NCBI RefSeq assembly: GCF_016592615.1
Contig: NZ_AP013043.1
Coordinates: forward strand, 30,001-62,000
DNA: 32,000 nucleotides
Source of the DNA: Isorropodon fossajaponicum endosymbiont JTNG4
Lineage (GTDB): Bacteria; Pseudomonadota; Gammaproteobacteria; PS1; Pseudothioglobaceae
Reading direction: 5' to 3'
Shown: positions 5,920 to 27,100 of the stretch, one piece after another
Layout of the letters: the number at the start of each line of letters is the position of its first letter
Position numbering within the stretch: position 1 is the stretch's first letter
Made by a program: the position numbers and the translations under genes
Notes under the pieces: generated by a model
The model's database searches: none
Told to the model about the DNA's origin: nothing
The model's input: only the letters and a program-made list of their open reading frames with translations

Positions 5920-8367
5920 TTAAAGTGTACGTGCCCTTTCAACACGTTCAAAAACTTCTATTTGATCGCCCGGCTGAACATCTGTGTAATTAAGGACGCC
6001 AATACCACATTCAGTACCTGATTTCACTTCATTAACATCGTCTTTAAAGCGTCTTAGTGATTCTAGCTCACCCTCAAAAATAACCACGCTATCGCGCAAT
6101 ACTCGGATTGGGCTGTCACGCCTGACCACACCTTCCTCAACCATACACCCTGCAATATCACCCATTTTTTGAGATCTAAATACATCCTTAACAAAGGCAA
6201 TACCAATAATATTTTCACTCAATTCAGGGCTGAGTAAACCGCTCATAATCGCCTTAACATCATCAATTAAATTATAAATAATTGAATAATACTCAACACG
6301 AACACCTTCATTGTCAGCCGTCTTACGTGCAACGGCATCAGCACGCACATTAAAGCCAAGCACCAAAGCGTTAGAAGTTGCCGCTAGTGTAATATCAGTA
6401 TTGTTGATACCACCAACACCACTTGACACTACTTTTACTCTAACTTCATCCGTTGATAATTCTTCCAAGGTTTCAATCAATGCTTGCGCCGAACCTCTAA
6501 CATCCGCTTTAAGCAATATATTAACGGTTGAAACATCGCCTTCTTCCATTTTCATTAGGAAGTTTTCCATCTTCGATGCTTGTTGTTTTTGCAATTGTGC
6601 TTCACGATCTTTGGCTTTTCTAAAATCAGCCACTTCACGAGCTTTACGCTCACTATCCACCACCAACACTTCATCACCAGAGTTAGGGACACCAGACAAG
6701 CCTAGCACCTCTACAGGCATTGACGGTGTGGCTGATTTAAGTACTTTGCCTTTATCATCCACAATTTGCTTCACTTTGCCATATTCAAATCCAGCAATCA
6801 TGATATCGCCTTTGTTCAACGTGCCCGATTGCACCAAAATAGTGGTGACTTTGCCACGGCCTTTTTCAAGGCGTGCTTCTAGTACAGTACCATGTGCTGG
6901 CGCTTTAATCACAGCTGAAAATTCTAAAACCTCAGCAGTTAGTGAAATTGCGTCTAATAAAGCATCCACACCTTCGCCAGTATGCGCTGATACGGGTATC
7001 ATCATCACATCGCCACCCCAGTCTTCAGAGATAACATTATGCGTTGAAAGAGCTTGCTTAATTTTGTCAATATCCATTCCTTCCTTGTCTATCTTATTAA
7101 TGGCAACAATTATTGGCACGCCTGCGGTTTGTGCGTGTTTGATAGACTCAATCGTTTGTGGCATCACGCCATCATCGGCAGCTACCACCAAAATAACAAT
7201 ATCAGTTGCATTAGCGCCACGAGAGCGCATTTTCGAAAACGCTGCATGCCCTGGTGTGTCAATAAAAGTAATGGTATTACCATTGGATTGAACTTGGTAA
7301 GCACCAATGTGTTGCGTAATACCACCAGCTTCATCGTGCGCTACTTTGGTTTGACGAATGTAATCAAGCAATGAGGTTTTGCCATGGTCAACATGACCCA
7401 TAATGGTTACAATAGGTGGTCTAGCACTTTCATTACCACTAGATTTTGATTGCTCAATTAATACATCTTCAATAGTTTCTTCAACACTGGCAATACCTTT
7501 ATGCCCCATTTCTTCTACAACTAACATGGCGGTATCTTGGTCAATCACATCATTTAGTGTTACCATAACACCCATGCCCATCAACACTTTAAGCACTTCT
7601 CCAGCTTTGGTAGCCATCTTTTGTGCAAGTTCGGTTACTTTAATATTCTTAGCAATAGCGATTTCATGAATCACTTTTTCAACAGGCTTTTGAAAAGCAT
7701 GTTGCGCCTGCTCTTCTTGTACTTTTTGTGACAAGCGTGTTCTGTCTTTTTTCTTCAGCTTTCGATTTGGATTATGTCTAACAACGTGAAGTTGCCTGCG
7801 AGTATTATTACCACTAGGTGCATTACGCAAGCGTTTAGGTTTTTTATCTTCTTTAGACTTATCCGACGTTTTGGGTTTTTCAACTTTTTTTGCAGTTTCT
7901 TGCACTGACGCTTGTTTGACCGTTTCTTTCTGGGCTTTTAGTGCCTCTACTTGGGTTTTTTGCAAACGCATCATCTCCAAACGCTTGGCATCTTGGACTA
8001 ATAATTTTTCATCTGCATCACGACCAGCATCCAAGGCGGCTTGAGCAGCTTGAGCAGCTTTATTAACAGCGATTTCAGGCTGTTTATCAGTCGTTGTGGC
8101 TGACTTTGTAAGGCGTTTTTTCTTAACTTGCACCTTAATACCACTTGCTGAACCGGTACTAGACTTAGTACCTACCTTACGAGAGACAGACATACTAGAT
8201 TTACTACTTGAGCGTTTTGAAAGACTGCTCATCAAAAATTTTCTTTCTTCTGCTGAAATGACAGAGTCTAAATTTTTACCATAAACGCCAGCATTATCCA
8301 GAATTGTGATTACCTCATCAGGCGTCTTTTTCAATAATTTAGAGAGTGTTTGAACTGTGTGTGCCAT
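5920..8367 (-). CDS. infB: Translation initiation factor IF-2
   Basis: GTPase core [16 protein letters not shown]...DTPGH...NKIDK, a charged K/E/A-rich N-terminal region, and the conserved C-terminal domains. 815 aa. Confidence 0.97.
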
Positions 8368-10605: not shown

Positions 10606-11568
10606 ATGAAAAAAATAAAAATTGCCGTATTAATGGATGATATCAGCACTATTAATCCAAAAAAAGACTCCTCCTTAGCCATGATGTTAGAAGCATCAAA
10701 ACGAGGCTGGGAGATTTACACCTTTGATACTGCTGATTTGTTCGCTCAAGATGGTTCAGTATTTGCCGATTGTGCAAAAACCACAGTTAGAGATAATCTT
10801 GATCATTGGTTTGAAAAAGAAACCAATGTAGTCATGGTGCTTGATGAATTTGACGTTATTTTAATGCGCAAGGACCCGCCCTTTGATATGACCTATATTT
10901 ACAGCACTTATTTATTGGAGCAAGCTGAAAATAAAGGCGTATTAGTCGTTAATAAGCCCCAATCCTTGCGCGATGCCAATGAGAAATTATTTGCCCTTAA
11001 TTTCCCACATTGTATGCCCAAAACACTAGTCAGTGCTAACCAAAGCAAGATTAAAGCTTTTATCAAAACGCAAAATACTGCTGTCATTAAACCGCTTGAT
11101 GGCATGGGTGGGCGTGATATTTTCAAATTTGAAACGCATGATACAACCATAGATGCCGTATTAAAACGCCTAACAAACAACGGCAAGTGCCCAATCATGG
11201 CTCAAGCGTTTTTGCCCGATATTGACAAGGGTGACAAACGTATTTTGTTGATTAATGGCAAACCAGTCGATTATGCACTTGCTCGCATTCCTGCTAAGGG
11301 TAGTTTTAAAGGCAATCTTGCTGCTGGTGCTAAAGGTGTGGGACAGCCATTAAGTGATAGAGACAGATATCTATGCGAACAAATCACGCCCACACTTAAA
11401 GCCAAAGGCTTAATATTTGTTGGGCTAGACGTTATTGGTGATTACATTACTGAAATTAACGTTACTAGTCCGACTTGTATTCGCGAGCTAGATGCGCAAT
11501 TTAACCTTAATATCGTAGGTGAATTGTTTGACGTTATTGAACAAAAAATTAGCGCTAATCGCTACTAA
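10606..11568 (+). CDS. gshB: Glutathione synthetase
   Basis: IAVLMDDISTINPKKDSSLAMMLEA N-terminus and ATP-grasp C-terminal half, typical of GshB. 320 aa. Confidence 0.93.
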   Translation: MKKIKIAVLMDDISTINPKKDSSLAMMLEASKRGWEIYTFDTADLFAQDGSVFADCAKTTVRDNLDHWFEKETNVVMVLDEFDVILMRKDPPFDMTYIYSTYLLEQAENKGVLVVNKPQSLRDANEKLFALNFPHCMPKTLVSANQSKIKAFIKTQNTAVIKPLDGMGGRDIFKFETHDTTIDAVLKRLTNNGKCPIMAQAFLPDIDKGDKRILLINGKPVDYALARIPAKGSFKGNLAAGAKGVGQPLSDRDRYLCEQITPTLKAKGLIFVGLDVIGDYITEINVTSPTCIRELDAQFNLNIVGELFDVIEQKISANRY

Positions 11569-18835: not shown

Positions 18836-18864
18836 AATGTGTCCAAGTAGGTTAGAGCATTGCA

Positions 18865-20344
18865 ACCAGATGAAGAGCCGCATATTGTCTTTACAGGAAA
18901 AAGCACGCTTAATAATATCAACTTTCTTGATAATCAGAACAAGAAAAACATACTCAGTTGGAAAAATATAACAGGCAGTGGTATATATTTTTCATCTGTC
19001 GATAGAGTATTGCGTATATCAAAAGTCGATATTGATGAGTTAAATAGTCAGATTGTTTTTGATCAAAAATCTCAACTTAATTTGCAAACTGTGTTGATAC
19101 AGGGTGTTGATCAAGCAAATGAACAACAAAATGGCAAGCCGTTGTCTATTCATATTGATGCGATTGCGTTGAGTGATAATCAAGTGCAATTCTCAGATTT
19201 ATCCTTAATAGAGCCTTTTTATTCTTCCATTGATCATGTAAATGGTCAAATTATAAATTACTCAACAGAGCCAAATACCGTATTAAAGGTGGAGGTTGAA
19301 AGCAATGTCAACAAGAGTGGTTATTTTAAGATTTCGGGTCAGTTAAATCCTACAAAGCCGACATTAAGCACTGATATTCATGCAACTTTTCGCGATATCT
19401 CTACAGCCAATATAACCCCTTATACGATTAAATTTATTGGTCAAAAGATAAAATCTGGGAAGTTGAATGTGACATTTGATTATAAACTCAGAGACAACCT
19501 GATTGAAGGTAGCAATGGTATTCGCTTTGATAGAGTTAGCCTTGTGGAACCGATTGAAAGCCCAGAGGCAGTACAATTGCCTTTGTCCTTGGCTTTGGCA
19601 TTGTTGGAGGACAATCAAGGTCAAACGTTGATTGATTTACCAGTACGTGGAGATATTAATAATCTAGATTTTAGCTACGCACATTTAGTTTGGAAGGCGT
19701 TTGGCGGTGTTATTGCGGGTATTATTACTGCATCATTTAATTTTCTAGGTAAGTTGCTTGGCGCAGATGATGCGCAATTAGAGTTTATTGGCTTTGCTTT
19801 AGCAGACTCAAGACTTTTACAACAAGAACAAGAAAAATTACTCATCATAGCCAAGGCATTAAAAAAACGACCGTCATTATCTTTAGGTATCTACCCTGTT
19901 TATAATACTGTGTGTGATACACACGCATTACGTGAGAAAGAATTGGCCACATTGTTAGCTGGTAACAAACAAAAAATTATTAAAAAAAGCCGTGGAACAA
20001 GCCGCCAATTGCTTATAAAGTATTGAGATATACACATGAAAAACGTTTTGGCATTGAAGGCTCTCAGGAGCGCATAGCAGTCATTAATCGTACTCAGAGC
20101 ACAAACAAAACACGCACTCAGCAGATAAAGCACCTACAACTTGGTGATGAGCTGTGCCATAATATTATAATTGACCATATAAAGTTTTCAACACTTGCAT
20201 CACAAAAGAGCACAATCTATTTATCAGTTTTTATTAGGTCAAGATCTTAGTCCTAAACGCTTGGAACTACTTAAATTAAAAGAAGTAGAGGCGCAAGAAA
20301 ATAATTGGATAGAAAGTAAATTATCTTTAGATGCTTTGCGGTAA
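18865..20344 (+). pseudogene. 5'-truncated DUF748 / AsmA-like large envelope protein gene with a decayed 3' tail
   Basis: Reading begins at the IS boundary; the track's TTG start at 18860 lies inside IRR. The segment PLSLALALLEDNQGQTLIDLPVRGDINNLDFSYAHLVWKAFGGVIAGIITASFNFLGKLLG...LEFIGF is typical of the DUF748 C-terminal region, and such proteins are normally around 1000 aa. The same frame continues to TAA at 20342-20344 through five stops (at 20024, 20075, 20126, 20168, 20180). It ends with a family-like tail: RAQSIYQFLLGQDLSPKRLELL. Confidence 0.6.
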
Positions 20345-21432: not shown

Positions 21433-22986
21433 TTGCAGTTACAGGAAAAAATTCAACAACTAAAGCCGTATAGTGGGCTATTGAAGGGCAATTTAATGGG
21501 CCTAGAAAAAGAAGGGTTGCGTGTGTCAAGAAAAGGTGGTATTTCTCAAGCGCCACACCCTCAAACCTTTGGTTGTGCGTTGACACACCCTAATATCACT
21601 ACGGACTTTTCTGAGTCATTAATAGAATTGGTAACGCCACCACTTGGTAATGCGGTAGAAATGCTGTCTTTTTTAGAAGACACACAGCATTATTTGTATT
21701 ATCATTTGCCCAAGGATCAAAACTTTTGGTCGACAAGTATGCCTTGTGTTATTCGTGGTGAAACCACCATTCCCATTGCTCAATATGGTACTTCTAACCA
21801 AGGCATGATGAAAACAATTTATCGTCAAGGGCTGGCAAATCGTTACGGCAGTGTGATGCAGACCATTGCAGGCATCCATTTTAATTATTCGTTTTCCCAT
21901 GAGTTCTGGCGGCAATATCAAACATTGCTTGCTCCTACAGAGGTATTAAGGTCATTTATTGATAATGGCTATATGGGCTTAACCCGTAATATAGTGCGTT
22001 ATGGCTGGATAATTCCTTATTTATTCGGCGCATCGCCTGCTGTGTGTAAGTCGTTTTTGAAAGGCTACCATGCACATTCGTTGGTTGAGTTTAATGAGTC
22101 AACTTTGTATGAACCTTATGCCACCTCTTTACGTATGGGGGATATTGGCTATCAGAATTTGGCTGAGGATGAGGCAGGCGTGAAGGCCAATTACAATAGT
22201 TTGAGCCATTATATAAATAGCCTTAAAGCAGGCATGCAAACGGCTTGTTCTGAGTATGAAATGATTGGCTTAAAGCGCCACGGGAAATATCAGCAACTTA
22301 ATACCAATATTTTGCAGATTGAAAATGAATATTATGCTTCTGTACGTCCAAAACCACTGGTTGAACCAGATAAAAAACCCTTAGATACACTAAGTAGTAG
22401 TGGTATTGGCTATGTTGAGCTAAGATCAATAGATATCAATCCACTCTTGCCATTAGGTATCGACAAGGCACAAATTTATTTCTTAGAAGTTTTTATGTTG
22501 TTTTGTTTGCTTGAACCATCCTGCGCTATTTCTACCTCAGAACAGTTTGAGATTGATACTAATGATCAACTAGTTGCTCATGAGGGTCGCAAACCCAAAT
22601 TAATGCTAACGCATAGAGGCAAGCAGACTTCACTTCAAAAGTGGGGGGGTGATATTATGGCTAAGATTGAACAATGTGCAGCCTTACTAAGTGAAAGTCA
22701 CCAAGGGTCTGTTCGGGATATGGCACGTCGTATTAATAATCCAAATTTAACGCCTTCTGCGATAACACTTAGTCAGATGAAAGAGCACAATCAGGGATTT
22801 TTTGATTATACTAATTCGTTGTCTAAACAATATAGAAACGGTTTTTTATCTAGTACAATCAATCAAAAACACTTTGATTATTTGGATCAACAGGCAAAGA
22901 TTTCATGTAAAAAACAGCAACAGATTGAAGCCTCTGATTTAGTGGATTTTGATACATTTTTAGCTGAGTATTTTAAAAATATCTAA
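21433..22986 (+). CDS. gshA: Glutamate-cysteine ligase
   Basis: Colinear with E. coli GshA (LKG..RGLEKE.LRV, ITTDFSESLIELVTP, QYGTSN.G..KT.YR.GL.NRYG..MQTI.G.H.N.S). 517 aa, TTG start. Confidence 0.93.
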   Translation: MQLQEKIQQLKPYSGLLKGNLMGLEKEGLRVSRKGGISQAPHPQTFGCALTHPNITTDFSESLIELVTPPLGNAVEMLSFLEDTQHYLYYHLPKDQNFWSTSMPCVIRGETTIPIAQYGTSNQGMMKTIYRQGLANRYGSVMQTIAGIHFNYSFSHEFWRQYQTLLAPTEVLRSFIDNGYMGLTRNIVRYGWIIPYLFGASPAVCKSFLKGYHAHSLVEFNESTLYEPYATSLRMGDIGYQNLAEDEAGVKANYNSLSHYINSLKAGMQTACSEYEMIGLKRHGKYQQLNTNILQIENEYYASVRPKPLVEPDKKPLDTLSSSGIGYVELRSIDINPLLPLGIDKAQIYFLEVFMLFCLLEPSCAISTSEQFEIDTNDQLVAHEGRKPKLMLTHRGKQTSLQKWGGDIMAKIEQCAALLSESHQGSVRDMARRINNPNLTPSAITLSQMKEHNQGFFDYTNSLSKQYRNGFLSSTINQKHFDYLDQQAKISCKKQQQIEASDLVDFDTFLAEYFKNI

Positions 22987-22993
22987 AAAATTA

Positions 22994-24337
22994 ATGAACA
23001 GTAATGAAACAACAATTTGTGCATTGGCCAGTAGCGTTGGTAAAGGTGGTATTGGTGTGGTGCGTGTATCAGGGTCGTTATGTAAAGTGATTGCAAAAAA
23101 AATGCTTGGGCTTGTTCCCAAACCGCGTTATGCGCATTATGGTTTATTTTTTGACCAAGAAAATGATGAAATAGACAAAGGTATTGCTCTTTTTTTCCCT
23201 AAGCCGCACTCATTTACAGGTGAAGATGTATTGGAATTTCAAGGGCATGGCGGTATGAGTGTGATGCGTTGTTTATTAGAATCCGCCATATCGATGGGTG
23301 CTAAACCGGCCGAGCCAGGTGAATTTTCAAAACGTGCTTTTTTAAACGGAAAAATGGACTTGGTGCAAGCAGAAGCGGTGGCAGATATGATTGATGCTAA
23401 CTCAAAACGTGCTTCCAAGTCAGCATTTAGGTCTTTGTCAGGCGAGTTTTCCAATCAAGTGAATGCACTTACCAAGTCTATTATTGAGCTTCGAGTTTTT
23501 GTTGAAGCGACTATTGATTTTTCAGATGAGGAGGTTGATTTTTTACAATCTGAGCAAGTTAAACTTAAAACAAAAGGCATAAAACAAGCGGTTGAAACCA
23601 TTTTAAAATCTGCCACACAAGGTGTGATTTTACGAGAAGGTTTGAATGTTGCTATTGCTGGCAAGCCCAATGCTGGCAAGTCTTCATTACTAAATGCACT
23701 GACACAAGAATCCAGCGCTATTGTGACTGATATTGCAGGCACAACACGTGACGTGTTAAAAGAAACCATTCATGTAAATGGCATGCCACTTAATATTATT
23801 GATACAGCAGGTTTGCATGATAGTGACGACAAGATAGAAAAAGAAGGCATCAAAAGAGCGCATTTGGAGATTGAGCGTGCTGATGTGGTATTAATGGTGT
23901 TTGATGCGCAAGAAGACAAGCCAGATTTTTCCATATTGCCTAAAAATATGGATGATCGTTCTTTATTACTCATCAAAAATAAAGTGGATTTAACAAGTGG
24001 CGCTGTTAAAAGAGAAATGATTAACGATATTGTTCAATTGTCAGTGTCAGCTAAGCACTCAAAAGGTATGGGGCTGTTACGAAAAGAGCTGTCTGATATT
24101 GCAGGATTAGAAGATTTTTCAGAAGGGGTTGTGTTTGCCAGAAAACGTCATATTATTGCCCTAGAAGTATCATTAGCGTCTATTGAAAATGCCATTATGC
24201 AATTAGAAAATGGTGCAGTAGAGCTAATGGCTGAAGATTTACGCTTTGCTGGTCAGTCTATGGGTAGTATTACTGGTGAGTTTTCATCGGATGATTTACT
24301 AGGTGAAATATTTTCTTCTTTTTGTATTGGAAAATAA
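22994..24337 (+). CDS. mnmE: tRNA uridine-5-carboxymethylaminomethyl synthesis GTPase MnmE
   Basis: TICALAS..G.GGIGVVRVSG, G-domain GKPNAGKSSLLNAL...DTAG, and the C-terminal FCIGK motif. Confidence 0.95.
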   Translation: MNSNETTICALASSVGKGGIGVVRVSGSLCKVIAKKMLGLVPKPRYAHYGLFFDQENDEIDKGIALFFPKPHSFTGEDVLEFQGHGGMSVMRCLLESAISMGAKPAEPGEFSKRAFLNGKMDLVQAEAVADMIDANSKRASKSAFRSLSGEFSNQVNALTKSIIELRVFVEATIDFSDEEVDFLQSEQVKLKTKGIKQAVETILKSATQGVILREGLNVAIAGKPNAGKSSLLNALTQESSAIVTDIAGTTRDVLKETIHVNGMPLNIIDTAGLHDSDDKIEKEGIKRAHLEIERADVVLMVFDAQEDKPDFSILPKNMDDRSLLLIKNKVDLTSGAVKREMINDIVQLSVSAKHSKGMGLLRKELSDIAGLEDFSEGVVFARKRHIIALEVSLASIENAIMQLENGAVELMAEDLRFAGQSMGSITGEFSSDDLLGEIFSSFCIGK

Positions 24338-24369
24338 GAAAACTTGCTTTCTGGTTTGAAACTAAACAT

Positions 24370-25854
24370 ATGAGTATTAGAATAAAATTCTACATTTACT
24401 TTTTGGTCACGATTTTGTTCTCGCCATTGCTAATGTATGAAGTGGTACTCGCTTATACAATGACTAATATCGTGGATGTGTTGCTGGTTGTCTTAATTCT
24501 GTTGGTTTATTTAGGTCTTTACTTGTCCATTCGTCAAGATTTTTTATCACCATTTAGTGATTTGCAAAGTTGGGTAGATAGCCATAAGTCTAGCCAAAGC
24601 GTGCGTTTAAGCGATTACCAAAGAACCACATTTCAACCTGTTGTAAAAGCGATTAATCATTTGATTGATGAAAATCAACATCTATATGATGACATGGAAA
24701 GCATCTTAAACAAGCAAATTCAGCGTTTAAGTAAAAAATCTGCCTCTTTAGAGACGCTATATAGCGTGTCATCAAAACTGAATAAAATGCATTCGATTGA
24801 TGAATTATTCTCGCACTTTTTAGATATTTTTATTAACATGACTGGCGCCTCATCAGGCGCTGCACGCAGTTTATCTGATGATGGTCAGCTTCACTTGATG
24901 GCAACACAAGGCGTTATTGACAAGCAGGGTCAGGTAGCAGATGTATTAAGTTCAGATTGTTTTTGTGGCGAAGTTGCTATGGCAAGTGACACTTATGTGC
25001 AATTTAGTGTACATACTTGTGCACAATGCGTGGGTAAGAAGTCTCAAGCCAAAGTCAGTGTTGGTACAATATTTATCCCACTTAGGTATCATGGAAAAAC
25101 ACTAGGCACTTTTAATTTATTTTTTGATACACTACCCTCACTGGCTTTTGATGAGCGTGCACTGCTCAGTTCTATTGCTGAAAATATCGCCATTGCACTA
25201 GATAAAGCTCGCCTAGATGCCCAAACTAAGCGCATGGAATTATCACAAGAGCGTTTGTTTTTATCACAAGAGATACATGATTCATTAGCCCAAACTATTT
25301 ACAGTTTAAAACTGCAAGTAACGGTACTTGGGAACATGCTTAAAGCAGGTAAAAAATCTGATGCAAGTGACAAAGTGTTGAGTTTACAATCTAATATTAC
25401 CCAGGCAAATCAAGAGTTACGTGAGTTGATGTGTAATTTTCGTGTGCCATTAGACCCTAAAGGGATTGAGACTTCTTTGACAAACTTACTCAATCGATTT
25501 ATGTCAGAAGAAGGCATTGCTACTTATTTACAAGTTGAGGGTAAACTACAAGTATCCCCAGAGGTGGAAATGCAAATCATGCGCATTACTCAAGAGGCAT
25601 TGTCTAATATACGTAAACACGCCAAAGCTCGCAATGTACGTGTTTTGCTTTTGGCAGAGCCTAATTGTCAATTACTGATTGAGGATGATGGCATTGGATT
25701 TGAAAAAGACCAAAATGAAAGTGAAGTAATGGGGAATAATATTGGCATGAATATTATGAAAGAACGAGCAACAAGAATTGGTGCCAGCATTGAAATTGAA
25801 TCAGAAGTCGATGAAGGTACACGCGTTATTGTCAACTTTCCGAAACTACCATGA
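24370..25854 (+). CDS. NarX/NarQ-family sensor histidine kinase (HAMP-like, Cys-cluster GAF-like module, HisKA_3, HATPase) lacking a periplasmic domain
   Basis: Two hydrophobic helices (IKFYIYFLVTILFSPLLMYEVVLAY and IVDVLLVVLILLVYLGLYLSI) are separated by about 4 residues. Cys cluster is DCFCGEVA...HTCAQCVG. H-box is SQEIHDSLAQTIYSLKLQV. N-box is EALSNIRKHA. G-boxes are DDGIGF and GMNIMKERA. ATG at 24370 is preferred over the TTG at 24322, which overlaps mnmE. Confidence 0.85.
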   Translation: MSIRIKFYIYFLVTILFSPLLMYEVVLAYTMTNIVDVLLVVLILLVYLGLYLSIRQDFLSPFSDLQSWVDSHKSSQSVRLSDYQRTTFQPVVKAINHLIDENQHLYDDMESILNKQIQRLSKKSASLETLYSVSSKLNKMHSIDELFSHFLDIFINMTGASSGAARSLSDDGQLHLMATQGVIDKQGQVADVLSSDCFCGEVAMASDTYVQFSVHTCAQCVGKKSQAKVSVGTIFIPLRYHGKTLGTFNLFFDTLPSLAFDERALLSSIAENIAIALDKARLDAQTKRMELSQERLFLSQEIHDSLAQTIYSLKLQVTVLGNMLKAGKKSDASDKVLSLQSNITQANQELRELMCNFRVPLDPKGIETSLTNLLNRFMSEEGIATYLQVEGKLQVSPEVEMQIMRITQEALSNIRKHAKARNVRVLLLAEPNCQLLIEDDGIGFEKDQNESEVMGNNIGMNIMKERATRIGASIEIESEVDEGTRVIVNFPKLP

Positions 25855-26480
25855 AAATCTATATCATTGACGACCACGCTTTGTTTCGTAACGGACTCAT
25901 TGCCTTATTAGAATCTAAACAAATTAGCGCCAGTGCCGCTGCTTCGCCAGAACAAGGTTTGGCAGAAATTCCTTCCTTGTCAGTGGATATTATTCTACTA
26001 GATTTACGTATGCCACAAATGTCTGGACTTGAAGTGTTAAAAACGCTCAAAGAAAAAAACATCACCACACCAATTGTGATGCTAACCACCAGCACCCAAG
26101 AACATGATTTACGTAATTGTCTTAAACATGGTGCCCAAGGTTACTTATTAAAGGATATGGATCCAGATGAGTTGGTTGATGCTTTAGATGAAGTTGTTGA
26201 AGGCTCAATTGTTGTTGCACAAGATATGACACACGTACTAGCAAAGGCTCTACGAGATGAATTAACCGATAATGAACCTTCGTTTAACGCCTTAACCAGC
26301 CGAGAAAAAGAAGTGGCCTGTCAAGTATCCAGCGGTTATAGTAATAAAGTCATTGCTAGGGAACTGGGCATCTCTGATGGCACAGTTAAACTTCATGTTA
26401 AATCAATTCTTAAAAAATTATCACTCAGCTCACGCGTTGAAGTGGCAGTCATGGTGACACGAAAAGGCTATTGCAAATAA
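25851..26480 (+). CDS. NarL/FixJ-family response regulator (receiver plus LuxR-type HTH)
   Basis: IIDDH, LLDLRMP and GYLLKDMDPDELVDAL, then LTSREKEV...NKVIARELGISDGTVKLHVKSILKKL. Closely parallels E. coli NarL. ATGA overlap with the kinase gene. Confidence 0.9.
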   Translation: MKIYIIDDHALFRNGLIALLESKQISASAAASPEQGLAEIPSLSVDIILLDLRMPQMSGLEVLKTLKEKNITTPIVMLTTSTQEHDLRNCLKHGAQGYLLKDMDPDELVDALDEVVEGSIVVAQDMTHVLAKALRDELTDNEPSFNALTSREKEVACQVSSGYSNKVIARELGISDGTVKLHVKSILKKLSLSSRVEVAVMVTRKGYCK

Positions 26481-26485
26481 AGCCA

Positions 26486-26965
26486 ATGGATGGATATCAA
26501 AAACTAGTAGCACAGGCATTAACAACAGTAGGTGAAGTGTTTCCATGGGATTTGGAAGAAGAGATTAAGCACAACGTTGATTTAATATTACTAGATATTC
26601 GCGAGCAAGATGAATTTGACATGATGCACATTAAGCATTCAATTCATGTTCCTAGAGGCGTGCTTGAGGGCGCTTGTGTTTGGAATTATGATGACACTGT
26701 GCCCAAATTAGCACAAGCAAGAGGGCAAAATATTGTTGTAATTTGCCGCTTAGGCAATCGTAGCGCACTTGCAGCCTTTACTATGCAACAAATGGGCTTT
26801 ACCAAAATGCGCTCATTAAAAATGGGTATCAAGGGCTGGAATGATAATGATTTTGAAATGGTGAATGTCAATCATACAATTGTTGATATTGACCAAGCCG
26901 ATAAATGGCTTAATAGAACGGTTTCAGAAGATAAATTAACGCCTTATAAAAATAATGTTAATTAA
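26486..26965 (+). CDS. Single-domain rhodanese-like sulfurtransferase
   Basis: LLDIREQDEF...HI..SIHVPRG and the active-site loop CRLGNRS. ATG lies 5 nt after the regulator's stop. An alternative TTG at 26471 would overlap the regulator gene. Confidence 0.8.
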   Translation: MDGYQKLVAQALTTVGEVFPWDLEEEIKHNVDLILLDIREQDEFDMMHIKHSIHVPRGVLEGACVWNYDDTVPKLAQARGQNIVVICRLGNRSALAAFTMQQMGFTKMRSLKMGIKGWNDNDFEMVNVNHTIVDIDQADKWLNRTVSEDKLTPYKNNVN

Positions 26966-26968
26966 CAT

Positions 26969-26996
26969 CTGACCCAGTGTTTTTTCTTAGTATAAT
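26969..26996 (+). promoter_or_regulatory. Possible upstream rrn promoter (P1-like)
   Basis: CTGACC, 16 nt, TATAAT. Its -10 lies 104 bp upstream of the -10 of the stronger consensus promoter, comparable to tandem rrn P1/P2 promoters. Confidence 0.35.
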
Positions 26997-27072
26997 TCTG
27001 CGCTTTCACTGCACAGAAACAGCCTTTGTTTTTAATACAAGGAAGTCGGAAAATAAAAGTTTAAAATAACGC

Positions 27073-27100
27073 TTGACAGGTTATCAGTTAGCTGTATAAT
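27073..27100 (+). promoter_or_regulatory. Consensus sigma70 rrn promoter with an A/T-rich UP-like region
   Basis: TTGACA (27073-27078), 16 nt, TATAAT (27095-27100). Preceded by aaaataaaagtttaaaataa. About 210 nt upstream of the 16S. Confidence 0.7.

Follow-up and report, generated by a model that had tools for sequence, protein, structure and literature searches.

The NarX/NarQ-NarL/NarP systems of Escherichia coli rely on kinases with HAMP, signalling-helix, GAF-like, HisKA_3 and HATPase_c segments, the kinase and regulator genes being adjacent, and a review names the periplasmic sensor domain as the only defining feature of nitrate-sensing kinases (PMC8199190). A HisKA_3 kinase and a NarL-type regulator, NreBC, are also encoded in a sulfur-oxidation cluster of Bacillus licheniformis together with the rhodanese-like protein YrkF (PMC9918477); this NreB senses sulfide via a [2Fe-2S] cluster bound by three Cys, with a labile -SH/-SSH as the fourth ligand, and the four-Cys NreB of Staphylococcus carnosus binds [4Fe-4S] (PMC13478379). 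Cys-based persulfide sensing is the accepted mechanism for regulators of the CstR, BigR, YgaV and SqrR type (PMC9918477), and in CstR-CstA, BigR, YgaV-YgaP and SqrR a regulator and a rhodanese-type sulfurtransferase are co-encoded. A single-domain cytoplasmic rhodanese is likewise linked to Dsr-type sulfur oxidation in the Rhd_2599-TusA-DsrE2 relay of Allochromatium vinosum. Here we describe a three-gene locus, termed the triad below, which encodes a sensor histidine kinase, a NarL-type response regulator and a single-domain rhodanese, and which lies within a 32,000 nt stretch (the window, to which all positions refer) of the genome of the Isorropodon fossajaponicum endosymbiont JTNG4 (NZ_AP013043.1), a vesicomyid-clam sulfur-oxidising symbiont of the Ruthia/SUP05 lineage. 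The triad is a real, conserved and apparently undescribed variant of the NarXL family, in which the nitrate sensor has been lost, a dedicated rhodanese has been acquired and the system is wired to Dsr.

In the window, the kinase gene (24370-25854, +; 494 aa; Pfam GAF_2, HisKA_3 and HATPase_c), the regulator gene (25851-26480, +; 209 aa; Response_reg and GerE) and the rhodanese gene (26486-26965, +; 159 aa; PF00581) follow one another with hardly any intervening sequence. Kinase and regulator overlap in an ATGA at 25851-25854, where the kinase TGA occupies 25852-25854 and the regulator ATG 25851-25853. The regulator ends with TAA at 26478-26480, leaving a gap of 5 nt to the rhodanese ATG at 26486, whereas an in-frame TTG at 26471 would make the rhodanese overlap the regulator. 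These arrangements had all been described in an earlier interpretation of the locus (hereafter the sequence-only reading) and are present in the sequence as described; of the two rhodanese starts, the ATG is favoured because homologues begin at MDGYQ, and homologues likewise support the kinase ATG at 24370 over a TTG at 24322. A scan for promoters and terminators gave no promoter-like or terminator-like site of note between the three genes.

Genomes of SUP05/Thioglobus and Ruthia are uninformative for the linkage of the three genes, because their whole NUDIX-gshA-mnmE-kinase-regulator-rhodanese neighbourhood is syntenic. Kinase homologues at 43-50% identity are flanked by dsbD and rnhB or by an atpI-like gene and trmD, or follow ydjM beside ribosomal genes, and despite these different flanks they all keep the kinase, the regulator and a rhodanese of ~155-165 aa in this order on one strand. 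A kinase alignment was then used to scan genomes, one per GTDB species, yielding 79 loci whose six-frame open reading frames (ORFs) were searched with the window proteins. The regulator followed the kinase in all of these loci bar two exceptions and a few truncated contigs, and an orthologous rhodanese (122-303 bits to the window protein) was located directly after the regulator in 54 of the 71 loci with room for it. The median gap between kinase and regulator was -4 nt (53 loci), indicating that the ATGA overlap is the norm in the family, and that between regulator and rhodanese was 12 nt, with 42 of 53 gaps not exceeding 30 nt; judged by these distances, the spacing of the triad is operon-like. 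In the opposite direction, metagenomes scanned with an alignment of 18 rhodanese sequences yielded 80 loci, in which the regulator was upstream of the rhodanese in 48 of the 62 loci with at least 700 nt of upstream sequence, and kinase plus regulator in 40 of the 48 with at least 2300 nt. The partnership between the kinase-regulator pair and the rhodanese is therefore strong in both directions (~76-83%), but not absolute, and the conservation of the triad across relatives, on which the sequence-only reading had made its proposal depend, holds in the midst of unrelated flanking genes. No recurrent alternative context was found for the 14 rhodanese orthologues lacking an upstream regulator, and no recurrent replacement gene after the regulator in the 17 rhodanese-less loci, apart from an S24 peptidase gene and an opposite-strand cysG.

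Carriers of the triad comprise SUP05/Thioglobus, vesicomyid and bathymodiolin symbionts, Thioalkalispiraceae, Ectothiorhodospiraceae, Chromatiaceae, Sedimenticola and Leucothrix, and all named carriers are sulfur-oxidising Gammaproteobacteria. The triad is retained even in clam-symbiont genomes of ~1 Mb, and it occurs in the cultured organisms Thiocapsa roseopersicina DSM 217, Thiocystis violacea, Thiorhodococcus minor and Thiosocius teredinicola.

In order to find recurrent neighbours, the flanking ORFs of the distant loci were clustered. Those most often located upstream on the same strand encoded a CobB-like amidase (33 loci), an IscA-like protein of ~105 aa (27 loci), an NrfD-type membrane protein (21 loci) and a ferredoxin with a twin-arginine translocation (Tat) signal (18 loci). 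In locus L036 the last corresponds to DsrO (NCBIfam NF045797, 282 bits versus a cut-off of 200), and the others to a DsrP-type NrfD protein, a DsrN-type homologue of cobyrinic-acid a,c-diamide synthase and a DsrR-type IscA-like protein. Among the 48 distant loci with enough upstream sequence, 30 had dsrN and/or dsrR directly 5' of the triad on the same strand, the order in dsr-linked loci often being dsrO-P-N-R-kinase-regulator-rhodanese. The distance between the dsrR stop and the kinase start was 15-30 nt in several loci, and others had a longer spacer with a promoter-like TATAAT. The 20-kb locus L169 reads dsrL-J-O-P-x-N-R-kinase-regulator-two inserted genes-rhodanese, followed by a convergent cysG. 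The triad is thus linked to dsr in many lineages, but not in the clade of SUP05 and symbionts; in the window it is not contiguous with dsr, its neighbours being gshA, mnmE and an rRNA operon.

Where the triad is located away from dsr, namely in SUP05, Chromatiaceae, Thiosocius and loci L006-L008, the rhodanese has stayed with the kinase-regulator pair. In Chromatiaceae (Thiocapsa, Thiocystis, Lamprobacter and Thiorhodococcus) and in Sedimenticola, the triad follows genes for an MsbA-like ABC exporter and a small S24 peptidase. In Thiosocius teredinicola, a cultured shipworm symbiont, cysG comes next after the triad, and rhd-tusA-dsrE2 (L170 12053-13245; CP019936.1), the known cytoplasmic sulfur relay, lies 1.5 kb downstream of the triad. 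Since this genome has a separate Rhd of 114 aa beside tusA-dsrE2, the rhodaneses of triad and relay are two different paralogues. These contexts, with dsrOPNR upstream in the distant loci and cysG and the relay genes in Thiosocius, bear out the link to reduced-sulfur metabolism suggested by the sequence-only reading, and the triad is tied to Dsr-type sulfur oxidation rather than to nitrate.

The siroheme synthase gene cysG lies convergently just past the rhodanese in both L169 (10692-12116, -) and L170 (10488-11924, -); in L061 it follows the regulator (6123-7556, -), and in L067 an S24 peptidase gene is placed between the regulator and cysG (6685-8091, -). This proximity fits a link to the supply of the DsrAB cofactor. 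The S24 (UmuD/LexA-type) peptidase protein, ~110-140 aa long and lacking a DNA-binding domain by Pfam, recurs beside the triad with the MsbA-like exporter (L036 6678-8960, -; L170 4228-6494; L171 4595-7395), in dsr-linked as well as Chromatiaceae-type contexts and in differing orientations, and the two may belong to the functional neighbourhood of the triad. As the exporter scored below every specific NCBIfam cut-off, no role was assigned to it.

The kinase consists of two transmembrane helices joined by a minimal loop, a HAMP-like segment, a signalling helix, GAF, HisKA_3 with His303, and HATPase_c. Its hydropathy peaks are centred at residues 12-22 and 33-50, and an AlphaFold2 (AF2) model places helices at 3-31 and 34-75 with a two-residue turn between them; overall, the loop is put at 2-12 residues. 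Behind the transmembrane helices, AF2 and hydropathy indicate the HAMP-like segment, the long signalling helix, the GAF domain at ~143-251, DHp and the catalytic domain, and HAMP was detected as such in a distant family member. Compared with E. coli NarX, the kinase is 23% identical in an alignment that starts only at NarX residue 145, in the second transmembrane helix, and its NCBIfam scores are about a quarter of the cut-offs (152.6 bits versus 553 for NarQ, 118.5 versus 578 for NarX). The cytoplasmic HAMP, signalling-helix, GAF-like, HisKA_3 and HATPase_c parts of NarX/NarQ are present, as is the central Cys cluster, whereas the periplasmic four-helix sensor domain with its P-box between the two transmembrane helices is absent. 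The protein is hence a NarX-family kinase anchored in the membrane, from which the periplasmic nitrate sensor has been lost, and its sensing can be directed only at the cytoplasm or membrane.

The Cys cluster in the GAF domain of the kinase (C197-x-C199-x17-C217-x2-C220; 24958-25029, +) is expanded relative to that of NarX, to CxC...C or CxC...CxxC, and C199, C217 and C220 align with the E. coli cluster. None of the four Cys varies among 11 sequences, the most distant of which is 43% identical. In distant relatives (28-37% identity), C197, C199 and C217 are mostly retained, as a CxCG motif with one Cys ~17 residues further on, and C220, which is specific to the SUP05-like group (SUP05 and clam symbionts), is lost, leaving three Cys. 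The cytoplasmic sensor with a Cys cluster proposed by the sequence-only reading is therefore upheld, both in its orientation and in the conservation of the GAF Cys residues. The only kinases that retain at most one of C197, C199 and C217 (L072, L073, L083 and L087) all lack the rhodanese; tabulating the Cys triad against the rhodanese ([[54,13],[0,4]]) gave a Fisher p of 0.0024, a value which derives from only about three independent lineages. PAS was not found in the kinase, whose Cys residues sit in GAF with the spacing CXC-X17-C(X2C), and PDB sequence and fold searches returned generic histidine kinases only and no characterised orthologue. Kinase homologues outside a triad were seen in L028, where regulator and rhodanese are missing, and in L029 (4001-5380), an orphan and apparently decaying homologue in a very AT-rich metagenome-assembled genome, which has lost the second Cys, has a deletion of ~10 aa in the Cys region and is followed by neither regulator nor rhodanese.

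The regulator has a receiver domain (Response_reg, E = 6.3e-30), whose D51 aligns with D59 of NarL, and a GerE/LuxR helix-turn-helix (GerE, E = 1.3e-17). Its alignment with E. coli NarL covers the whole length (202 residues) at 45% identity and shows a conserved recognition helix, TVK(L/V)HVK..LKK; its NCBIfam NarL score of 223.9 bits is just below the cut-off of 250. A search of the window, which holds no nar or dsr promoter, with the TACYYMT heptamer revealed five NarL 7-2-7 sites versus 2.9 expected, and 19 of 100 shuffles were as good, so that there is no excess. The regulator further carries a conserved terminal Cys, C208 (26472-26477), just beyond the helix-turn-helix, which appears as [YF]C[KR] in the SUP05 group and as GLC.R in Chromatiaceae and Sedimenticola and is absent in Thioalkalispiraceae; it is possible that C208 is a second redox or persulfide site.

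The rhodanese matches PF00581 (E = 4.6e-17), and its AF2 model (mean predicted local distance difference test score, 82.9) retrieved rhodaneses as all top PDB matches, the nearest solved structures being the uncharacterised 6mxv, Sud (1qxn), YgaP and GlpE. As for the kinase, PDB sequence and fold searches gave generic proteins only, in this case rhodaneses, and no characterised orthologue. The family is large (7572 clusters at E<=1e-20, with clustering at 90% identity) and has a conserved C-terminal extension of ~35 aa, and C64 (26675-26677, in LE.AC.W.Y) as well as the catalytic C87 are invariant in a 30-sequence alignment. The relay rhodanese is shorter (114 aa) and invariably occurs with tusA and dsrE2; its triad counterpart measures ~155 aa, has the C-terminal extension and the second conserved Cys, and is paired with the kinase and the regulator.

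The active-site loop of the window protein, C87-R-L-G-N-R-S93 (26744-26764, +), combines the rhodanese fold with the catalytic Cys in a six-residue CX4R arrangement (C87-RLGN-R92), a spacing which by sequence is of the sulfurtransferase type. The sequence-only reading had called this loop intact, and as far as the CX4R spacing is concerned this is correct; however, the family consensus is CRSGNRS, and the Ser replaced by Leu in the window is conserved to at least 90%. The genome-scan rhodaneses have CRSG[NKRY]RS, and a Vesicomyidisocius relative has CHSGNRS. Among close relatives the Ser-to-Leu change is private to this genome, relatives at 85-96% identity having Ser; the closest of them is the protein of Candidatus Ruthia sp. 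Asou_11_S2, with 96% identity. Relaxed selection in symbionts passed on vertically may account for the change, as may an adjustment of function.

Our tentative yet preferred interpretation is that the three genes form a signalling module of reverse-Dsr sulfur oxidation, with the rhodanese on the input side and the regulator controlling sulfur-oxidation genes. The GAF Cys site of the kinase would report the sulfane-sulfur, sulfide or thiol-redox state of the cytoplasm, and the rhodanese would be its dedicated partner, loading or stripping sulfur via C87, possibly with C64, and thereby setting kinase activity. The phosphorylated NarL-like regulator would then act on sulfur-oxidation genes (dsr, possibly sat/apr or sulfur-relay genes) instead of nitrate-respiration genes. 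An input or accessory role of the rhodanese is favoured because there is no extracytoplasmic sensor, the GAF Cys triad is kept, and the rhodanese moves with the kinase-regulator pair and not with dsr. Beyond gene linkage we infer every step of this scheme, including the persulfide or thiol relay from rhodanese to kinase that the sequence-only reading had put forward. A bolder form, which we regard as doubtful, holds that a dedicated sulfurtransferase serves as the input of a two-component system and that the NarL-like regulator is the master switch of reverse Dsr in Gammaproteobacteria, including SUP05 and symbionts; here the rhodanese would write or erase labile sulfur on the three-Cys GAF site, in the form of a persulfide/polysulfide bridge or of a fourth ligand to an Fe-S cluster.

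By its components, B. licheniformis NreBC is the closest experimentally understood analogue of the triad, likewise having a HisKA_3 kinase and a NarL/GerE-type regulator within a cluster for sulfur oxidation in which a rhodanese is encoded as well (PMC9918477, PMC13478379). The split into three-Cys and four-Cys forms of NreB parallels that among the triad kinases, although the sensor domains, PAS and GAF, respectively, are not homologous and the parallel is one of analogy only. NreB has a soluble PAS sensor with CX2CX11C (CX2CX11CX2C in the four-Cys form), whereas the triad kinase is a membrane-anchored HAMP-GAF protein with CXC-X17-C. In addition, the Bacillus rhodanese gene is not the one that comes directly behind the regulator gene, and NreBC acts on sqr-pdo detoxification instead of on Dsr energy metabolism. 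In contrast to CstR, BigR, YgaV and SqrR, which are single-protein repressors modified on their own Cys, the triad would use His-Asp phosphotransfer with the Cys residues on the kinase.

Several observations weigh against the input role of the rhodanese and the proposed control of sulfur oxidation. The fourth Cys (C220) is lineage-specific, the window itself contains the unusual Ser-to-Leu change in the catalytic loop, and no enrichment of NarL-type sites was found in the window. About a quarter of the kinase-regulator pairs (17/71) lack an adjacent rhodanese, some of them while keeping the Cys triad (L044, L049, L050, L055 and L067), about a fifth of the rhodanese orthologues are located elsewhere, meaning that the partnership is not obligatory in cis, and other genes stand between regulator and rhodanese in L169 and L054. 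The last three points equally suit a different explanation, which we consider possible but unlikely: the rhodanese would be an output, in that this Dsr-pathway enzyme, which traffics sulfur, would simply share the expression of the operon whose end it occupies, and the kinase would sense without its help. Rhodaneses are indeed known as sulfur carriers feeding TusA and DsrE2 (PMC3368242), and the 3' end of a dsr operon, where the triad is placed, is a likely position for enzymes of the pathway; some rhodanese orthologues also stand alone. However, the rhodanese leaves dsr together with kinase and regulator, in at least four unrelated contexts, Thiosocius has its own separate 114-aa Rhd-TusA-DsrE2 relay next door, and the rhodaneses of the distant loci have kept a higher mean identity to their window counterpart (43%) than the kinases have (32%).

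Kinases of the ArcB-like quinone-sensing kind typically have a membrane anchor with almost no periplasmic loop. The triad kinase shares this feature, and it might thus be a general redox, oxygen or quinone sensor operating through an Fe-S or disulfide switch, in the manner of NreB or ArcB, with the rhodanese supplying only the sulfur for building or repairing this cofactor. The resemblance of the SUP05-type CxC-x17-CxxC to the [4Fe-4S]-binding four-Cys motif of S. carnosus NreB (PMC13478379) and the IscA-like DsrR encoded just upstream in many loci point the same way. We nevertheless find this rather improbable, as most family members have only three Cys, a dedicated rhodanese is not normally needed for general Fe-S assembly, and the consistent neighbours are dsr, cysG and rhd-tusA-dsrE2, not respiration or oxidative-stress genes. 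Very improbable is an ordinary NarX/NarL nitrate-nitrite system with the rhodanese as an unrelated neighbour, as automated annotation would have it. The kinase is named NarX in several sources and has a NarX-like cytoplasmic architecture, and the regulator resembles NarL in identity and model score as given above, but the defining feature of nitrate-sensing kinases, a periplasmic sensor domain (PMC8199190), is missing from the kinase, which reaches only a quarter or so of the NarX and NarQ cut-offs. Moreover, the triad is embedded in dsr operons and not in a nar/nap/nir context, the adjacency of the rhodanese, which has no counterpart after the regulator in E. coli NarXL, is conserved far above background synteny, and the carriers include phototrophic Chromatiaceae and organisms not known to respire nitrate. 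A true nitrate sensor is essentially excluded by the absent sensor domain and the gene context. For the same reasons, and with no excess of 7-2-7 sites in the window, the idea in the sequence-only reading that the system couples electron-donor status to nitrate respiration was not sustained.

With respect to its surroundings in the window, the triad is preceded by gshA (21433-22986, +), the second gene upstream of the kinase, and by mnmE (22994-24337, +), identified by ORF and Pfam context, from which the kinase is separated by a 32 nt spacer (24338-24369) that measures 9 nt in Thioglobus L001. In the SUP05 group the triad may be co-transcribed with mnmE or be transcribed from a promoter inside mnmE. 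The gshA-mnmE-kinase order is common to the clade of SUP05 and symbionts only, mnmE being part of the context and outside the conserved module. The 3' boundary of the triad is marked by a consensus sigma-70 promoter (27073-27100, +; 12/12 hexamer match) of the rRNA operon, which the Rfam scan placed downstream of the rhodanese on the same strand (16S start, 27308). The stretch from the rhodanese to this promoter showed no sign of an intrinsic terminator, the fold of 26955-27075 having a z of -0.18, and the Rfam scan of the window gave rRNA and tRNA only. The rest of the window holds housekeeping genes (purD, truB, infB, nusA, gshB, rarA, mltB and a mutT-thiE fusion). With gshB (10606-11568) and gshA, both glutathione-biosynthesis genes are contained in the window, as is an ORF of 388 aa (18860-20026) without any NCBIfam match at E<=1e-10.

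In the open-access literature, we found neither a kinase-regulator-rhodanese unit nor a dsr-attached two-component system described, nor, in agreement with the sequence-only reading, a NarXL system with a rhodanese partner. Where a recent survey of dsr gene content touches on regulation, it names DsrR alone, and the regulation-related roles reported to date, as cited there, concern only DsrR, DsrS and DsrC (PMC11406059). A. vinosum is reported to possess annotated 'NarX/NarL' genes without nitrate reduction (PMC3368242). Labels of this kind are misleading in genomes that carry the triad. For the sensing of internal sulfur status and the control of dsr in sulfur oxidisers, the triad offers a concrete and widespread candidate, and as it keeps together in many of these bacteria and often closes the dsr operon, it is a strong candidate for a switch controlling Dsr sulfur oxidation; the cultured carriers make the hypothesis directly testable. 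If the bolder form given above is true, the triad would be the first two-component system with a dedicated sulfurtransferase as signal-input protein, and the NarL-like regulator would be the long-sought master switch of reverse Dsr, including in the globally abundant SUP05 bacteria and in chemosynthetic symbionts.

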